IMG/VR virus record: IMGVR_UViG_3300025724_000001
Coordinates: 1-64,000 of that record
DNA: 64,000 nt
DNA from: a virus
Taxonomy: Duplodnaviria > Caudoviricetes
Strand: one strand, 5' to 3'
Shown here: positions 13,348 through 21,668 of the stretch, in pieces
Layout: each line of letters opens with the position of its first letter
Position numbering within the stretch: position 1 is the first letter of the stretch
The notes under the pieces: model-generated
Database searches by the model: none
Seen by the model: the letters and a program-made list of their open reading frames with translations, nothing else
What the model was told of the DNA's origin: nothing
Translations under genes and position numbers: made by a program

Positions 13348-16164
13348 ATGGCTACATCAAAAAGAGTTTTCGTTTCTCCAGGTGTTTATACCTCTGAGAA
13401 AGATTTAACATTCGTTGCTCAAAGCGTTGGTGTGACAACACTGGGTTTAGTTGGTGAAACACTAAAAGGTCCAGCTTTTGAGCCAGTTTTAATAAAAACA
13501 TATGACGAATTCAGAACATTTTTTGGATCAACTTCTCCTTTAAAAGACGGTAATGGTAATCCTGCCTATGAACTCCCATATTTTGCAAAATCATATCTAC
13601 GGGAATCAAATCAATTATTTGTAACAAGAATACTTGGTTTAACTGGATACTTACCAAATAAAACATTTGCTCTAAAAACTATTGGTGGTGTAATTGTAAA
13701 CACAGAATCAACACCAACACAAACCAACGGTACACTTGATTTACTTAATGTTGAATCATTCGAGTTTTATAATGTTTTAAGCGGAAAAACAGCAAATGAC
13801 GGTAGTTCAATTATTGACTGGATTAGTGAACAAACTTTTGTAAATGAATCATGGTTCACAATTGGACTAGTTCCTACAGCATCAATTGAAACATTAACCG
13901 GTGAACAAGTAAATGGTCCTATTGGTAATGTAACTAATTTCGCATGGGCAAATAATTTTCTCAATCCAACTGGTGATGGTGTTTTTTCTTACTTGTTTGT
14001 TTATGATGATGGTATGGATAGATTTATTGTAAGCCAATTTGAATATCCATCAACAACAAACGAATATGATAATATAGCTGTCGCTGAATTTAGACCAAGA
14101 GGCCGTTATGTTACATCAACATTAACTTTAACAGTTACTAATAATACAGGATTTACAATGTCTTCAAATGACATTGAAACGAATCCGTTAGGTGAATTTA
14201 TTTTAACTATTAATCCTGATGACGCAAATATGCCAGCAAAAACATTTACTTGTTCAATGGATAGAACATCTAGTAAATATGTGACAAAAGTATTGGGTAC
14301 TGGTGTATTTGATAGAAATTATATGGATTATCCTATTTATGTGTTTGAATCTTATCCAATATTAGTTGAATCACTATATAAACGTGGTTTAATTAGGGGA
14401 TTAAGCCTTGATGTGGTTTATCATCCGGTTGGTAATGATTTTATGACAGAATGGAAAACAGCAGAATCACCATTTATTGTTTCAGAAGTGCGTGGTGGTG
14501 TTGTTAATGATTTGTTTAAATTTATTGCAATATCTGATGGTAATGCATCAAACGTACAAGTAAAAGTTTCAATATTAAATATTGACCTTGATACTGCAGA
14601 ATTTGACGTTCTTATTCGCGATTTTAATGATACCGATGATAATATGGTTGTTCTTGAAAGATTTTCAAGATGTTCAATGAACCCAGATCTTCCTGGCTTT
14701 ATCGGTTTAAAAATTGGAACGTATGATACTGAATATGAACTTAAATCCAAATATGTGATGTTAGAATTAGCGGAAGATTTCCCAATAGATGCTGTTCCAT
14801 CAGGATTTAGAGGTTATGCCACTGATCAACTATCTGGCGATGCAATTTTGGGTGGTGTGCTTTATAAAACACAATATTACATTGCAGGTGATATTGTCAC
14901 ATATGATGCAACTGGTGTACCAGAAGATCAATCAGGTGATAGAATCAAAAGGGTTATGTTAGGATTATCAACACAATTTGGATATGATAACAGTATGTTT
15001 AATTTTAAAGGTGTAAACCCAACAACAACCACAACAGGATTCCACCTTTCATCACAAGCATCAACTTTAACTGGTAATACAAATACTGGTTTTGAATTTG
15101 ATTGTACACCATATGACCTTGAAGGAATAAATAAAGGCGAACTCGAATCGGTATCAAAACGCAAATTTACTCTAGCATTGGCAGGTGGATTTGATGGCTG
15201 GGATATATACAGAGATGTTAGAACATTTGGTGATGCATATAAATTTGGAAAAACAACATATGATGATAATAACACTAATAATGGTGGTGTGTTTAATTCT
15301 ACTGTCGGTAATTCTGACTATTATGCATATAAGGCAGGTATTGACACGTTTAACAACCCGGAAGCAATTGATATAAATCTCTTTGCAACACCTGGTATTA
15401 ACTTTTATGAACACGCATCATTAACTGAAGAAGCTATTGATATGGTTGAAAACGAGAGAGCTGACTCACTTTATATTATATCAACACCAAACGTAACAAC
15501 AGCTGATGAAATTATTGATATGATGGATACAATTGATTTGGATTCTAATTATTCCGCCACATACTGGCCATGGATACAAGTTAGAGACAATGAAAATTCA
15601 ACACAATTATATATTCCACCAACTGGTGAAGTTCTCAGAAATATGGCATTAACAGATAACGTTTCGTATCCTTGGTTTGCAACTGCAGGATATTCAAGAG
15701 GTATTGTTAACGCAATCAAAGCTCTTAAAAAATTAACACTTGATGAAAGAGATGAACTTTATAAAATGAGAATTAATCCAATAGCAACTTTTTCTGATAC
15801 TGGCCCTATTATTTGGGGTAATAAAACACTTCAAATACGAGAATCTGCTCTTGATAGAATTAATGTTAGAAGATTATTATTAAGAGCAAGAAAACTCATA
15901 GCAGCGGTCGCTGTCCGATTACTATTTGAACAAAATGACGAACAAGTTAGAAACGAATTTACTAGACTTGTTAACCCAATTCTTGAGGCTATTAAAAAAG
16001 AAAGAGGACTTTATGATTTCAGATTAGTAGTATCTAATGATCCTGAAGATATTGATGCAAATACTCTTAGAGGTAAAATTTACATTAAACCAACAAGATC
16101 ATTAGAATATATTGATATTGAATTTATCATAACACCAACAGGAGCTTCATTTGAGAATATCTAA
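13348..16164 (+). CDS. Contractile tail sheath protein (gp18-like)
   Basis: N-terminal FVSPGVYTSEKDLT; GETLKGPAFEP; C-terminal PWFATAGYSRG, INPI, WGNKTL, RINVRRL and IKPTRSLEYIDIEF. Confidence 0.95.
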   Translation: MATSKRVFVSPGVYTSEKDLTFVAQSVGVTTLGLVGETLKGPAFEPVLIKTYDEFRTFFGSTSPLKDGNGNPAYELPYFAKSYLRESNQLFVTRILGLTGYLPNKTFALKTIGGVIVNTESTPTQTNGTLDLLNVESFEFYNVLSGKTANDGSSIIDWISEQTFVNESWFTIGLVPTASIETLTGEQVNGPIGNVTNFAWANNFLNPTGDGVFSYLFVYDDGMDRFIVSQFEYPSTTNEYDNIAVAEFRPRGRYVTSTLTLTVTNNTGFTMSSNDIETNPLGEFILTINPDDANMPAKTFTCSMDRTSSKYVTKVLGTGVFDRNYMDYPIYVFESYPILVESLYKRGLIRGLSLDVVYHPVGNDFMTEWKTAESPFIVSEVRGGVVNDLFKFIAISDGNASNVQVKVSILNIDLDTAEFDVLIRDFNDTDDNMVVLERFSRCSMNPDLPGFIGLKIGTYDTEYELKSKYVMLELAEDFPIDAVPSGFRGYATDQLSGDAILGGVLYKTQYYIAGDIVTYDATGVPEDQSGDRIKRVMLGLSTQFGYDNSMFNFKGVNPTTTTTGFHLSSQASTLTGNTNTGFEFDCTPYDLEGINKGELESVSKRKFTLALAGGFDGWDIYRDVRTFGDAYKFGKTTYDDNNTNNGGVFNSTVGNSDYYAYKAGIDTFNNPEAIDINLFATPGINFYEHASLTEEAIDMVENERADSLYIISTPNVTTADEIIDMMDTIDLDSNYSATYWPWIQVRDNENSTQLYIPPTGEVLRNMALTDNVSYPWFATAGYSRGIVNAIKALKKLTLDERDELYKMRINPIATFSDTGPIIWGNKTLQIRESALDRINVRRLLLRARKLIAAVAVRLLFEQNDEQVRNEFTRLVNPILEAIKKERGLYDFRLVVSNDPEDIDANTLRGKIYIKPTRSLEYIDIEFIITPTGASFENI

Positions 16165-16673: not shown

Positions 16674-17162
16674 ATGGCTGACTTATTAATGAAGATGCCC
16701 GTACCTTACGAGCCTAAAAGAAAAAATAGATTTATTTTAAGATTTCCTTCAAGTTTAGGAATTAATGAATGGTATGTGTTTTCTGCTAATAGACCTAGTA
16801 TGAAAATTAACTCTACTGAAATCCAATTTTTAAATACATCAACTTATGTTGCAGGTAGATTTGTATGGGATGAATTACGTGTTCAATTTAGAGATCCGAT
16901 TGGTCCTTCAGCATCACAGGCGTTAATGGAATGGGTACGTTTACATGCAGAATCTGTTACGGGGAGAATGGGGTATTCTTGTGGCTATAAAAAAGACATA
17001 GAGTTAGATATGTTAGATCCAACAGGAGTTGTTGTTGAAAAATGGATACTTCAAGGAACATTTTTAACTAATATAAATTTTGGTGATCTTGATTATTCAA
17101 GAGATGATATAGCAACTATTGAATGTAGTTTACGAATGGATCGTTGTATACAAGTATATTAA
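16674..17162 (+). CDS. Tail tube protein (gp19-like)
   Basis: YEPKRKNRF, YVAGRFVWDEL, EW, YKKDIEL.MLDPTG.VVEKW.LQG.F and FGDLDYS motifs; follows the sheath gene. Confidence 0.92.
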   Translation: MADLLMKMPVPYEPKRKNRFILRFPSSLGINEWYVFSANRPSMKINSTEIQFLNTSTYVAGRFVWDELRVQFRDPIGPSASQALMEWVRLHAESVTGRMGYSCGYKKDIELDMLDPTGVVVEKWILQGTFLTNINFGDLDYSRDDIATIECSLRMDRCIQVY

Positions 17163-17180
17163 AATAATTCTCGTATATCC

Positions 17181-17236
17181 TTGACATCCTAAAAAAAAAT
17201 CCATATTTTTACGAAAATGTAAATATATGGATTTTT
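17181..17236 (+). promoter_or_regulatory. Promoter (TTGACA-N17-TATTTT) overlapping an 18-bp hairpin that covers the endonuclease start codon
   Basis: TTGACA at 17181-86 and TATTTT at 17204-09. Inverted repeat 17195-17212 / 17219-17236 (17 of 18 pairs) includes ATG 17227. Confidence 0.7.
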
Positions 17237-18810
17237 CATTTTTCACAACAGATAATAAATCTGGTTATAAAACCAACGAAAAATGGTTAAAACATCACCA
17301 GCCAGAATTATATAATAAAATTATAAATTATTCTAAAGAATTTAAATATGATTTAAGTTTTAAAGAAAAAATATGGTTTTATTTTAATAATTTAACCGAA
17401 CGTCCAAAATGTAAAACATGTGGAAAAGAAATTAAATTTAGGGAAAGATTTGATAAACCATATGGTGATTTTTGTTCATTAAATTGTATTAATAATAATA
17501 AAAATGAAATGATTAAAAGGCAAAAGGCAACATTTCAACGAAAATATAATGTTGATTTTTATCCTGAACATGAAGATTTCATTAAAAAACAACGAAAAAC
17601 AAAATTAGAAAAATATGGGAATGAAAATTATAATAATCCAAAAAAAATGGCCAAAACAAAATTAATTAAATATGGTTCTCAAAAATATTGTAATCATAAA
17701 AAATATATTGAAACTTGTAAAGAAAAATATGGTGTGGAAAATTTTTCAAAATCAAATGAATATAAAGATATTATTGATAAAAAATTTCGAAACATATATC
17801 CAGATATTAATATTGTTAAAATAACAAAAAATAAGGTTAAAATTAAATGTAATTTGTGTAATAGAATAATTGAAATTGAAAAGCATTTATTACACGGAAG
17901 AGTAAAATATAATCAAATTATATGTCCTGAATGTAATCCAATAGGTCAAAGTCAAAAAAGTAGTCATGAAAATGATTTGTCTAATTTCCTTAATGGTTTG
18001 TCAATAAAATACATATCATCTGATAGAAGCTTATTAAATAGACAGGAATTAGATATTTTGATACCAGATTATAAATTGGCAATAGAATTTGATGGTTTAT
18101 ATTGGCATAATGAATTATTTGTACCATCAGATTATCATTTAAAAAAAACTATTAGATGTCAAGAAAAAAATGTTGATTTAATTCATGTTTTTGAAGATGA
18201 ATGGCTATTTAAAAAAGAAATTGTTGAATCAATAATCAAAAATAGACTGGGTAAACTAGATGATAATATTTTTGCTGAAAAATGTGAAATTAAAGAAATC
18301 GATTCAAATACATGTAAGGATTTTCTTATTAATAATCATATTCAAGGAAATGTTAATTCCAAAATTAAAATTGGTTTATATTATAAAAATGATTTGGTTT
18401 CTGTTATGACTTTTTCAAAAGGCAGAATTGTTGTTGGTGGTAAAAATAATGAATGGAAATTGACGAGATTTTGTAACAAAATTAACGTCAATGTTATTGG
18501 TGGTGCTAGTAAATTATTTAATTATTTTCTTAAAACATATTCTCCCACAAAAATTATTTCTTATTCTGATATTAGATTATTTAATGGTAGTTTATATGAA
18601 AAATTGGGTTTCAAAAGAAAATCTCAATCAAAACCAAATTATTGGTATGTAATAAATAATCAAAGATATCATAGATTTAATTTTAGAAAATCAATACTAG
18701 TTAAAGAAGGTTATGATAAAAATAAAACAGAAAGGGATATTATGTTTAATAGGAAAATATATAGAATTTATGATTGTGGACACATTAAATGGGAATTTAA
18801 TGTACTTTAA
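17227..18810 (+). CDS. Free-standing homing endonuclease-like protein (Zn fingers, KYG repeats, Vsr/DUF559-like nuclease, GNAT/Mom-like C-terminal domain)
   Basis: CKTCG...FCSLNC, KYG repeats, CNLC/CPEC, ELDILIPDYKLAIEFDGLYWH...IHVFEDEW. C-terminal NHIQG...LTRFC...GGASKL...ISYSD...YEKLGF. More AT-rich than its neighbours. Confidence 0.75.
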   Translation: MDFSFFTTDNKSGYKTNEKWLKHHQPELYNKIINYSKEFKYDLSFKEKIWFYFNNLTERPKCKTCGKEIKFRERFDKPYGDFCSLNCINNNKNEMIKRQKATFQRKYNVDFYPEHEDFIKKQRKTKLEKYGNENYNNPKKMAKTKLIKYGSQKYCNHKKYIETCKEKYGVENFSKSNEYKDIIDKKFRNIYPDINIVKITKNKVKIKCNLCNRIIEIEKHLLHGRVKYNQIICPECNPIGQSQKSSHENDLSNFLNGLSIKYISSDRSLLNRQELDILIPDYKLAIEFDGLYWHNELFVPSDYHLKKTIRCQEKNVDLIHVFEDEWLFKKEIVESIIKNRLGKLDDNIFAEKCEIKEIDSNTCKDFLINNHIQGNVNSKIKIGLYYKNDLVSVMTFSKGRIVVGGKNNEWKLTRFCNKINVNVIGGASKLFNYFLKTYSPTKIISYSDIRLFNGSLYEKLGFKRKSQSKPNYWYVINNQRYHRFNFRKSILVKEGYDKNKTERDIMFNRKIYRIYDCGHIKWEFNVL

Positions 18811-18851: not shown

Positions 18852-19604
18852 ATGAGTGAATTTAAGATTGATCCATCGATAGCATATGATGTCGTGGAAT
18901 TACCAAGTGGGGGTATACATTACAGTAATGGAAAAAAATCTGTTAGAGTTGCATATTTAACTGCGGCCGATGAAAATATTTTATCATCACCAAATTTAAT
19001 TGCTTCGAATAAAATTATCAATGAACTTCTAAAAAGAAAAGTTTTGGATAAAGATCTCCCAGTTGAAGAAATTGTTCAAGAAGATAAACAGGCTATTTTA
19101 ATATTTTTAAGAAATACTGCTTTTGGTTCAGAATATAATATGAATTTAATGGATCCAAAAACAGAAGAGAAATTTACAGTTATGGTAGATCTTTCCCGGT
19201 TAAAAGTAAAAGAATTTACATTAATTCCGGACCAGAATGGTGAATATCCTTATTTTATGAAAAAAAGTGGTGTTAATATCACTTTCAAGTTTTTGACACA
19301 AAAACAGGAAGACGAACTTCAAAAAATTGAGGAAACTTGGAATGGTGAGGGCGTTGCCCCAATAATGACAAAGCGTCTTGAATTTATGATTAAATCTATA
19401 AATGGTAATAGAAGTCAAATGGAAATTCATAATTTCATCGAATATAAGATGCCGATTAAAGATTCTCAGGATTTTCGAAAATATGTTTCAGAAAATAAAC
19501 CAGGTTTAGATTTATCACAAAAAGTAACGACCCCGTCAGGAGATGAAATCCAAGTTGATATTGGATTTGGGGTAGAATTTTTTCGCCCTTTCTACGGATT
19601 ATAG
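18852..19604 (+). CDS. Tail/baseplate-hub assembly chaperone (T4 gp26-like)
   Basis: ELPSGG.HY, LTAADENIL and D..AILIFLR..AFG..Y motifs; C-terminal FF.P; lies between tube and tape measure. Confidence 0.75.
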   Translation: MSEFKIDPSIAYDVVELPSGGIHYSNGKKSVRVAYLTAADENILSSPNLIASNKIINELLKRKVLDKDLPVEEIVQEDKQAILIFLRNTAFGSEYNMNLMDPKTEEKFTVMVDLSRLKVKEFTLIPDQNGEYPYFMKKSGVNITFKFLTQKQEDELQKIEETWNGEGVAPIMTKRLEFMIKSINGNRSQMEIHNFIEYKMPIKDSQDFRKYVSENKPGLDLSQKVTTPSGDEIQVDIGFGVEFFRPFYGL

Positions 19605-19737
19605 AAAAGGTCAATTAAATGAAATTTTATTTTTAGTTTATCGAGGTTTTTCATATTCTGATGTTATTGGTATGCCGATATACATAAGAAGATATTTAAT
19701 TCAGCATATTCAAGAAATAGAAAGTAAAAATAAATAA
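19576..19737 (+). CDS. Start-less gp51-like ORF, probably the frameshifted extension of the chaperone
   Basis: The +1 frame is open from 19576 to TAA 19735-37 and reads FALSTDYRKGQLNEILFLVYRGFSYSDVIGMPIYIRRYLIQHIQEIESKNK. There is no start codon before codon 33. Confidence 0.7.
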   Translation, partial: NFFALSTDYRKGQLNEILFLVYRGFSYSDVIGMPIYIRRYLIQHIQEIESKNK

Positions 19738-19754
19738 TTATCTATTTATAGGAT

Positions 19755-21668
19755 ATGGCAATTGGTCTCACAATAGAACAAGCAATACTCGACTCAAAGG
19801 GTGATTATATTAGATTGATGAAGTTATGGAATACTGCACATCCAGACGATATGATCACGGAGGATACTGCAAAAAGTTTATCACGGTTATATTCTGGTTT
19901 AAATAAACAAAGATTTCCAAATAGAAGTAGTGGTGGTAGTAGTGGAGGAAGACCAACAACTGTGGAAGGATGGATTGAAAGATTTGTTTCGACACAATTA
20001 CGAGAAAGGCCGGGTGAAAAAGGTGAATTTATTGATGTTCAAGACGCTCTTCAAACATTTTTTGACGAAAGTGGAAGATTTCGTGGAATACGTGGTGCTG
20101 GTGCAGAACTTGGTCGAAGATTGATACTTGATCAGGTAAATGTTTATTTAGAAGAGCAGGCTAGTCTTTTACGGAAAATAAATGAAGAAGCCGGTATGAC
20201 GGGTACTTTATCACGTTCATTTCGTGAAGAGATCATGGCCGCTTCTCCCGAAGCAATAAAATTGGGTATAAGCTTTGAGGAATTATCAGATTCAGTAACT
20301 GAAACTGTAGCACAATCAGGAAAATTTAAACTACTTAGCAAAGACACAATAGCAGAAATGGCTTTAGCTAGTAAATTCACAAGAGATATGAAGGAATTTG
20401 CTGGTATGGCGAAGGATTTTGAAAGGGTTGGTTATGGTGTTTTAGATATGTCTAAGATGATTGAAAGAATGGGTTTAAATTCGTTAACATTAGGATTAAA
20501 TGCCAGAGAAACAACTGCGGGTATTGACAAATATTTGGAAAAATTAAATCAATATGGTTTTAGAAATGGTGTTGAAGGATTAAATAGAATGGTTCAACGT
20601 TCCATTGAATTTAGGATGAATATGGAAAATGTCTTTAATCTAGCTGAAAAGGTTTGGGATCCAGATGGTGCGTTGGAAATTGTTGCTAATTTACAAATGA
20701 TTGGTGGTGCATATGGTGATTTAAATGATCCAATTCGAATGATGTATATGGCAACAAATGATGTTGAGGGGTTGCAAACAGCAATTATTGGTGCTGCAAG
20801 ATCATTAGTTACGTATAATGCAGAGCAAGGACGATTTGAAGTTACTGGTGCTAATTTAAGAAGAGCAAAAGAAATGGCCGAACTTTTTGGTATGTCGATG
20901 GAAGAATTGACAAGTACTGGAATTGCTGGTATGGAAAGGTTGCAAGCATCTACAGATTTAGCATTAGCCGGATTAGTTATGGAAGATGATGAAAAAGAAT
21001 TCATAACCAACCTTGCTCAAATGAAGGGTGGTAGAATGGTTATTGAAGTTCCAAAAGATATGAGAGAACAGATGGGACTAGACATGGGAGAAACCACATT
21101 GGAATTGTCTAAAATGAATGAACTTCAAAAAGATATCTTATTACAGGAGCAAGAACGATTCAAAGAAATGGATATGAAAGACATTGCAAGACAACAAGTC
21201 ACAATGATTGAAAATATTAGTCGGGATCTTTCTTATCTTGTTGCAGTTGCAAGGGTTGGTGTTGGTGAAACTATTCACGCTGCTATTGAAAGATATTTGG
21301 GTGTTAATTCACAAACAGTTAGTGGTGTTAGTGATAGATTTGCGATGAAAGGTGGTGAATGGATTGAAAATAAAACTGATTTTTTGGAGGGTGCTATAAA
21401 AAATAGTAATCTACCCGATTGGTTGAAATTACCAAAAAATAGGGGGGTTAGTAGTGTTGAAGAACAACGACCATTACCTGTAACCACAACTAGCACAACG
21501 CCAGTTACTAAAGTAAATGAAGGTGTAGAAGAACTAATAACAAAGAGAGTTATAGTTGATGTGAATCTTAATTCAAATTCACCATTAACCGATCCATTAC
21601 GAAGAATGTTATTTAGTGATCCTGAATATATGAGAGATTTCAGTAAAAGTTTTTTAAGTATAAAATAA
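19755..21668 (+). CDS. Tape-measure-like protein (637 aa)
   Basis: Helical, A/G/E/M-rich composition; position right after the chaperone; TATTTATA at 19743-50. Confidence 0.6.
   Translation: MAIGLTIEQAILDSKGDYIRLMKLWNTAHPDDMITEDTAKSLSRLYSGLNKQRFPNRSSGGSSGGRPTTVEGWIERFVSTQLRERPGEKGEFIDVQDALQTFFDESGRFRGIRGAGAELGRRLILDQVNVYLEEQASLLRKINEEAGMTGTLSRSFREEIMAASPEAIKLGISFEELSDSVTETVAQSGKFKLLSKDTIAEMALASKFTRDMKEFAGMAKDFERVGYGVLDMSKMIERMGLNSLTLGLNARETTAGIDKYLEKLNQYGFRNGVEGLNRMVQRSIEFRMNMENVFNLAEKVWDPDGALEIVANLQMIGGAYGDLNDPIRMMYMATNDVEGLQTAIIGAARSLVTYNAEQGRFEVTGANLRRAKEMAELFGMSMEELTSTGIAGMERLQASTDLALAGLVMEDDEKEFITNLAQMKGGRMVIEVPKDMREQMGLDMGETTLELSKMNELQKDILLQEQERFKEMDMKDIARQQVTMIENISRDLSYLVAVARVGVGETIHAAIERYLGVNSQTVSGVSDRFAMKGGEWIENKTDFLEGAIKNSNLPDWLKLPKNRGVSSVEEQRPLPVTTTSTTPVTKVNEGVEELITKRVIVDVNLNSNSPLTDPLRRMLFSDPEYMRDFSKSFLSIK

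Follow-up and report, generated by a model that had tools for sequence, protein, structure and literature searches.

A conserved out-of-frame extension suggests programmed +1 frameshifting in a gp26/gp51-like gene of an uncultured phage

The gene that precedes the candidate tape measure gene in the window (the whole 64,000-nucleotide stretch analysed here, part of a 104.7-kb contig of an uncultured phage with 32% GC) is related to T4 gp26 and gp51, and its 3′ end is overlapped by a conserved open frame that lacks a start of its own. On the strength of the sequence data, the gene very probably contains a programmed ribosomal frameshift site, by which a short and a long form would be made from one mRNA in the manner of the lambda G/GT chaperone. 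We put the probability of this reading at about 0.8. The features of the locus and of its neighbourhood are listed in Table 1.

Table 1. Positions of the putative frameshift gene, its elements and the neighbouring tail genes in the window.
Feature	Positions	Strand	Remarks
Tail sheath gene	13348..16164	+	PF04984/PF17482, phrog_23
Tail tube gene	16674..17162	+	phrog_4542, E 1e-23
HNH homing endonuclease	17227-18810		phrog_3339, E 1e-119
Zero-frame ORF, short form, 250 aa	18852..19604	+	Putative gp26-like hub-assembly or tail-assembly chaperone
GGGG (Gly GGG and the G of Val)	19569..19572	+	Invariant nucleotides, 5–8 nt upstream of the P-site codon
TAG closing the +1 frame just 5′ of the putative shift site	19573..19575	+	
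Putative shift site TTT TTT CGC	19578..19586	+	T positions invariant in the clade
+1-frame extension, 50 codons and TAA	19585..19737	+	jackhmmer peptide matches, hhalign against the gp51 tail
Zero-frame stop TAG, 7 codons past the last TTT	19602..19604	+	
637-aa gene, candidate tape measure protein	19755..21668	+	ESM Atlas features, position

The zero frame ends with the codons GGG GTA (19572) GAA TTT (19578) TTT (19581) CGC (19584) CCT TTC TAC GGA TTA TAG (19602–19604). The +1 frame, which is closed by the TAG at 19573–19575, then reads AAT TTT TTC GCC CTT TCT ACG GAT TAT AGA and so on, and stays open for 53 codons up to the TAA at 19735–19737. When CGCC is read as one step, the two frames are joined into a fusion of 294 residues with the junction GVEFFALSTDYR, in which the extension, ALSTDYRKGQLNEILFLVYRGFSYSDVIGMPIYIRRYLIQHIQEIESKNK, forms a C-terminal module that resembles the tail of gp51. 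A first-pass annotation made from the sequence alone had described the same codons, the same TAG and the same open frame, and had predicted products of 250 and 294 residues; every detail of that description, both lengths and the junction are reproduced from the sequence. Downstream of the zero-frame stop there is also a mini-ORF of five codons in the −1 frame (ATG AAA TTT TAT TTT TAG at 19619, preceded by AAAGG, region 19606–19636), which is probably a product of chance and cannot start the conserved peptide.

The extension is out of frame with the upstream gene throughout the family. The analysis covered 256 homologous loci at ~30–80% protein identity; about 240 of these loci were fetched from IMG/VR, translated in three frames around their zero-frame stops, and searched with jackhmmer seeded with the 53-residue peptide. 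The peptide is present in 239 of 239 IMG/VR and phage loci, where it lies in the +1 frame 230 times, in the −1 frame nine times and never in frame, and it is found in +1 in all 17 loci of giant phages (genomes of 200–390 kb). The extension is thus out of frame at all 256 loci (247 in +1, nine in −1), far more than chance would produce. It overlaps the 3′ end of the upstream gene, the homologous peptide starts at the same Phe-rich site across loci, and conservation of the peptide (alignment consensus FFGLTxxYKxxLLEEIYxCxxHxxFxYxDVxxMPxYERRxYL) begins exactly at the two phenylalanines.

The lengths of the zero-frame proteins are equally uniform. The protein family is very large: one search gave 2458 matches, and another gave 1786 cluster representatives. 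Among 150 representatives of clusters at 50% identity, a few of which are fragments, almost all end no more than about 10 residues from the Phe-rich site. Nearly all representatives stop a few residues past the position that aligns with query P246, and not one runs on in the zero frame to give a long form. The best-matching proteins are 248–256 residues long, and the distance from the last TTT to the zero-frame stop is 21 nt at 147 of the 185 distinct loci.

Alignment of homologous loci had been put forward in the first-pass annotation as a check on the site and on the offset. Both TTT TTT CGN and the +1 offset are conserved in relatives. The offset is not universal, and in one clade of IMG/VR loci (L089–L098) it is −1. 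The sequence of this clade is GAT TTT TTT TTC CCA, a run of nine T that constitutes a classical slippery run, which means that the direction of the shift has switched within the family.

Searches among cultured phages returned little. The locus itself has no blastn match there, tblastn with the 53-residue peptide finds three distinct phages, with matches that start at Phe-Phe and lie in the +1 frame, and tblastn with the short form and with a second protein finds only 3–7 records, so cultured relatives are few. Two myoviruses of Firmicutes, LIS04 (locus L249, 4682–4919) and HSE3 (locus L250, 4688–4904), display the same +1 arrangement just 5′ of their tape measure genes. The extension is left without annotation in the record of Listeria phage LIS04, and the record of Bacillus phage HSE3 presents it as a 56-residue gene, gp075, that starts at an internal ATG. 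Conservation between HSE3 and LIS04 reaches upstream of this ATG, to the Phe site.

The site takes a limited number of forms. The majority of loci have TTT TTT TGG CCT, the window's clade and one further locus (L167) have TTT TTT CGN CCT, and several clades have TTT CTT TGG CCT (L002, L141, L144, L146, L149, L156, L158, L159 and L161). Other variants are TTC TTT CGT in HSE3, TTT CTA TTC in locus L003, TTT TTT AGT in LIS04, and ATT TTT CTC, GTT TTC CTC and ATT TTC CTT in giant phages. Of the cultured relatives, Flavobacterium phage immuto carries TTT CTT TGG and Microcystis phage Mel-JY01 carries TTT TTT TGG. In eight giant-phage loci (L259–L265 and L267), with sites such as GTT TTC CTC and ATT TTC CTT, good re-pairing of tRNA-Phe is available only by a −2 movement (UUC to UUU), and a plain +1 slip re-forms two of the three pairs.

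Constraint at the nucleotide level was analysed in the clade of the window, with 48 distinct sequences. Entropy in this set is zero at each of the six T of the site, and a Phe codon four codons 5′ of the site varies between TTT and TTC (0.90 bits). The variable position is position 3 of the zero frame upstream of the site and position 3 of the +1 frame downstream of the zero-frame stop; in the overlap of seven codons both frames are constrained, and purifying selection is seen on both. The codon at the A site of the clade is an Arg codon of the CGN type (CGC, CGT or CGA), the third base of which sets the +1-frame residue to A, V or D. In the window it is CGC, which accounts for fewer of the 1239 Arg codons in the contig than any other triplet (19, or 0.58 per 1000 codons), in agreement with the emphasis that the first-pass annotation had placed on a GC-rich codon at this position, and the site is the only in-frame TTT_CGC of the 104.7-kb contig. 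CGT and CGA, at 4.8 per 1000 each, and UGG, at 10.7 per 1000, are not rare in this contig, so an argument from a “hungry codon” is weaker for the family as a whole, in which other sequences of the clade carry CGT or CGA and most other clades UGG.

A second conserved element lies upstream of the six T. The third base of its Gly codon GGG has zero entropy in the 48 sequences, though GGG is a minor Gly codon here. Judged by its sequence, the GGGG element could act as a Shine-Dalgarno-like element or as a hairpin stem that pairs with GCCC(U). Within 19569–19590 of the window, GGGGU and GCCCU can pair into a small hairpin whose loop contains the T run. For the alignment, alifold gives a small consensus hairpin around the site with an energy of −6.8 kcal. 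Structure prediction found no significant or conserved stimulatory RNA structure downstream of the site (z ~0); the absence of such a structure is normal for +1 shifts. No tRNA genes were found in the 104.7-kb contig, so a phage-encoded tRNA that is shifty or reads four bases cannot be invoked from it.

The following sequence of events is what we infer for the shift itself, for its direction (+1 rather than −2), for its efficiency and for the roles of the two products as chaperones. Most ribosomes would terminate at the TAG at 19602 and release the 250-residue short form, and a fraction would enter the +1 frame at UUU_UUU_CGC (19578–19586). The most likely event is a slip of the P-site tRNA-Phe from UUU (19581–19583) to UUC (19582–19584) during the time the rare CGC waits in the A site. 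The shifted ribosomes would go on to read GCC CUU and the codons that follow, as far as the TAA at 19735, and would produce the long form. The shared N-terminal part of the two proteins would bind the precursor of the tape measure or of the hub, and a further interaction would be contributed by the extension, on the model of lambda gpG/gpGT.

The site has counterparts in other systems. UUU_CGN is the +1 frameshift motif of influenza A PA-X and of plant amalgaviruses (Nibert et al. 2016, PMC5052127). The core is identical: the P-site UUU would re-pair with UUC, and the A-site CGN is an Arg codon that is rare in the genome. The first-pass annotation had already drawn this parallel, and it is borne out by UUU UUU CGC at 19578–19586, where the A site holds the rarest Arg codon and CGN is kept in the clade. 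However, PA-X and the amalgaviruses involve eukaryotic ribosomes and RNA viruses, whereas the system of the window is bacterial, and the wider phage family mostly carries YUU_UGG in place of UUU_CGN. The +1 shift of prfB, the gene of RF2, takes place at CUU_UGA_C and has an upstream Shine-Dalgarno element 3 nt from the P-site codon. The TTT CTT TGG sites of several relatives would allow the same P-site slip as prfB, from CUU to UUU, with UGG in place of UGA. The window shares with prfB an element 5′ of the site, its invariant GGGG, but at 5–8 nt from the P-site codon and not at 3 nt. The A-site codon is the sense codon CGC and not a stop as in prfB, and the autoregulatory logic of prfB is absent from the window.

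The same two products could also arise by a −2 slip, in which tRNA-Phe would move from UUU at 19581–19583 back to UUU at 19579–19581, after which UUC GCC would be read. The resulting frame is the same as after a +1 shift, and the long form would contain 295 residues with the junction GVEFFFALSTDYR. The run of six U permits perfect re-pairing in this direction, and re-pairing by −2 is better than by +1 both at the G_UUU_UCC and A_UUU_UCC sites of giant phages (L259–L265, L267) and at UUU_UUU_AGU of Listeria phage LIS04. On the other hand, the sites TTC TTT CGT of HSE3 and TTT CTA of L003 cannot re-pair by −2 and can do so by +1, the conserved zero-frame codon in the A site (CGN or UGG) fits a model in which the P-site tRNA slips at a slow A site, and UUU_CGN is an established motif of +1 shifting (PMC5052127). 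We therefore consider a −2 slip possible but doubtful.

Slippage could take place in transcription instead, if RNA polymerase left out a single U at the T6 run and so made an mRNA that encodes the long form directly. T runs of six to nine are known substrates of transcriptional slippage, and most members of the family have T6–T7 runs, with T9 in the −1 clade. A run of six is short for efficient slippage, however, and several independent clades keep the arrangement with runs of only three T (TTT CTT TGG, as well as HSE3 and L003). These sites without a T run favour a slip of the ribosome over a slip of the polymerase, and transcriptional slippage is unlikely as a general mechanism.

It is more improbable still that the locus contains two separate genes, the second of which would encode a small gp51-like protein initiated independently, for example from a non-canonical codon or by ribosomes that re-initiate once they have passed the zero-frame stop. 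The region is annotated in this way in several database records, with TTG or ATG starts in Mel-JY01, immuto and HSE3; some GTG or TTG occurs in the shifted frame 5′ of the site in ~70% of the loci, and the window has ATT codons at 19624 and 19666. However, the +1 frame of the window contains no ATG, GTG or TTG before codon 33, and the first ATG, that of codon 33 (19672), lies within the conserved MP motif. The TAG at 19573–19575, one codon 5′ of the site, leaves the extension with no start codon from which its conserved N-terminal part could be translated, and a TAG just 5′ of the site recurs in about 12–13 related loci. Of the 185 distinct loci, 172 lack an ATG in the shifted frame 5′ of the site, and 51 lack ATG, GTG and TTG alike, which rules out a conserved independent start; the first-pass remark that the extension has no usable start codon holds for the window, and elsewhere such a start is not conserved. 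The GTG and TTG codons that do occur are at scattered positions. The Val codon just 5′ of the site varies freely (GTT, GTA, GTC, GTG and also GCG), and in so doing makes or breaks a TTG of the +1 frame and creates the TAG in the window and in about 12 other loci; a codon free to make either TTG or TAG indicates that the +1 frame is not read there. Finally, the conserved stretch FF-x-L-S/T-x-D/E-Y-R/K begins at the site, 5′ of every annotated start.

An assembly or sequencing indel in the T run, named in the first-pass annotation as an outcome that would overturn its reading, or a decaying pseudogene, is effectively refuted, homopolymer runs being error-prone notwithstanding, by the identical arrangement in 256 independent loci from many samples, by best-matching proteins of 248–256 residues and by purifying selection on both frames. 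The +1 programmed frameshift proposed at the outset is thus supported by the conserved offset, the conserved site, the lack of an own start and the rare CGC.

The relationship to T4 gp26 and gp51 is evident at the level of profiles. The 250-residue protein matches PF12322 (T4_baseplate, the gp26/gp51 family) with an E-value of 9.5e-8 and 32.4 bits, above the gathering cut-off of 24.5, over residues 27–232 and profile positions 12–205 of 219, which confirms its description as gp26-like. It also matches phrog_150 (baseplate hub, E 1e-9), and in the fusion this match is extended from profile position 233 to 250. T4 gp26 (208 residues) and gp51 (249 residues) both match PF12322 end to end and are therefore paralogues; their genes are adjacent, on opposite strands and divergently transcribed. 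T4 gp26 ends with KEFFELL, three residues past its FF motif, compared with six for the short form of the window, and gp51 continues for 49 residues past the equivalent F, compared with 50 for the long form. Neither the extension nor the short form had a significant pairwise BLAST match to T4 gp26 or gp51, so that profiles were needed, and a Pfam and PHROGs scan with the extension alone gave no match. In hhalign, the extension profile aligns with the gp51 tail (extension 18–51 on gp51 218–250, E 3.5e-4) at a probability of only 37%, and whole long forms are collinear with gp51 (52–290 on 42–248, E 0.0023). With hhalign probabilities of 37% and 12%, the homology to the gp51 tail is weak. The gp51-like character ascribed to the extension in the first-pass annotation is thus reflected in the alignment of the profiles, at a low probability of the match. 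The precomputed annotation of gp51 homologues includes a second family, PF28602, beside PF12322, and PF28602 probably covers the C-terminal tail of gp51.

T4 also differs from the window. T4 has two separate genes and no frameshift, whereas the window has one gene in two frames, and T4 gp26 and gp51 contain Cys pairs, whereas the protein of the window is devoid of cysteines. One of the T4 pairs, close to residue 85, forms a CxxC-like motif, and the other lies around residue 186. Residues 93–240 of the window protein have weak structural matches to zinc-ribbon-like domains (DnaJ, NrdR, Tim15), and this part of the model may represent a degenerate zinc ribbon.

The gene order around the locus is sheath, tube, HNH endonuclease, chaperone gene, 637-residue gene and then genes of very large proteins. 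No HNH gene separates tube and chaperone genes in L001, L002, L249 and L250, where the two are direct neighbours, so the endonuclease of the window looks like a mobile insertion. The 637-residue protein has no Pfam or PHROG match, and its BLAST comparison with T4 gp29 and with the tape measure protein of immuto was not significant. When its features were compared with the ESM Atlas, 24 of 30 hits belonged to clusters of PF10145 (PhageMin_Tail) and five of 30 to clusters of PF20155 (TMP_3), with scores of ~0.92, which is a lead towards a tape measure protein and is taken as a lead only. A tape measure protein is annotated as the product of the next gene in immuto (L002), LIS04 (L249) and HSE3 (L250).

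The AlphaFold2 model of the short form has a mean pLDDT of 93.8. Foldseek found no match to it in the PDB at E ≤ 0.001, and an exhaustive structural search with VIA-align gave 48,161 matches, the best three of which all lie on residues 3–100. They are 3fgx (Z 6.3, rmsd 4.5, 88 aligned residues), the HK97 tail assembly chaperone gp10 (2ob9; Z 4.7, rmsd 3.9, 75 aligned residues) and prophage YqbN (3klu; Z 4.5), all with Z-scores in the range that chance can give. YqbN presumably occupies the tail-chaperone position in the gene order of its Bacillus prophage. With a named chaperone ranked second and YqbN third, the structural comparison of the model is suggestive of a tail assembly chaperone.

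Genes of tail assembly chaperones are known to share a conserved frameshift (Xu, Hendrix and Duda 2004, as referred to in PMC2147016 and PMC9024508). As with lambda gpG/gpGT, the out-of-frame arrangement of the present family is kept across very divergent phages. Unlike that of lambda, the shift in the window would be +1 (or −2) and not −1, and there is no X_XXY_YYZ heptamer; a −1 slippery site, T_TTT_TTT_TTC, occurs only in the L089–L098 clade. At roughly double the length of gpG, the window protein carries an additional domain at its C terminus, and no sequence relationship between it and lambda gpG/gpGT is detectable. The link between gp26/gp51 and the G/GT scheme suggested in the first-pass annotation nonetheless fits the gene order, and the weak structural matches to tail assembly chaperones point the same way. 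By analogy, T4 genes 26 and 51 appear to be a G/GT frameshift replaced by two paralogous genes, in which gene 26 would supply the short form and gene 51 the long one. A precedent for such a replacement is the two-gene tail chaperonin of Bacillus phage 0305phi8-36 (Hardies et al. 2007, PMC2147016), which belongs to a different protein family and for which no frameshifted relatives are described in that paper.

T4 gp26 and gp51 have been listed as hub assembly chaperones with an unknown mechanism (Leiman et al. 2010, PMC3004832). In cyanophages and marine vibriophages, ORFs assigned to “gp51” have only ~20% of the length of the T4 protein and correspond to its C-terminal region, and no frameshift was proposed for them (Sullivan et al. 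2010, PMC3037559). A gp26/gp51 frameshift was not found in the literature searched, the coverage of which leaves out many subscription journals. The frameshifted gp26/gp51 gene is very probably a new variant of the known G/GT principle, as far as sequence comparison can tell. We lean towards a broader view, in which the tail assembly chaperone throughout the lineage of T4-related phages and giant myoviruses is the gp26/gp51 “hub assembly” protein, the ancestral and still dominant form being one gene in two frames and T4, with two genes, the exception.

To our knowledge, T4 and its relatives had seemed to be without the otherwise near-universal two-form frameshifted tail assembly chaperone, and the roles of gp26 and gp51 have been unclear for decades. 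One frameshifted gene that corresponds to gp26 and gp51 together gives both proteins a specific model that can be tested. The puzzling “truncated gp51” ORFs of marine T4-like phages (PMC3037559) would be explained by it, and annotations would be corrected in thousands of phage genomes, in the current records of which the extension is unannotated or given an arbitrary start. If the reading is true, bacterial viruses contain a very widespread and undescribed class of +1 (or −2) sites (YUU_UGG, UUU_CGN) with occasional switches to −1. We know of only a few +1 frameshift sites that are well established in bacteria, and this family would add a large natural set of them.
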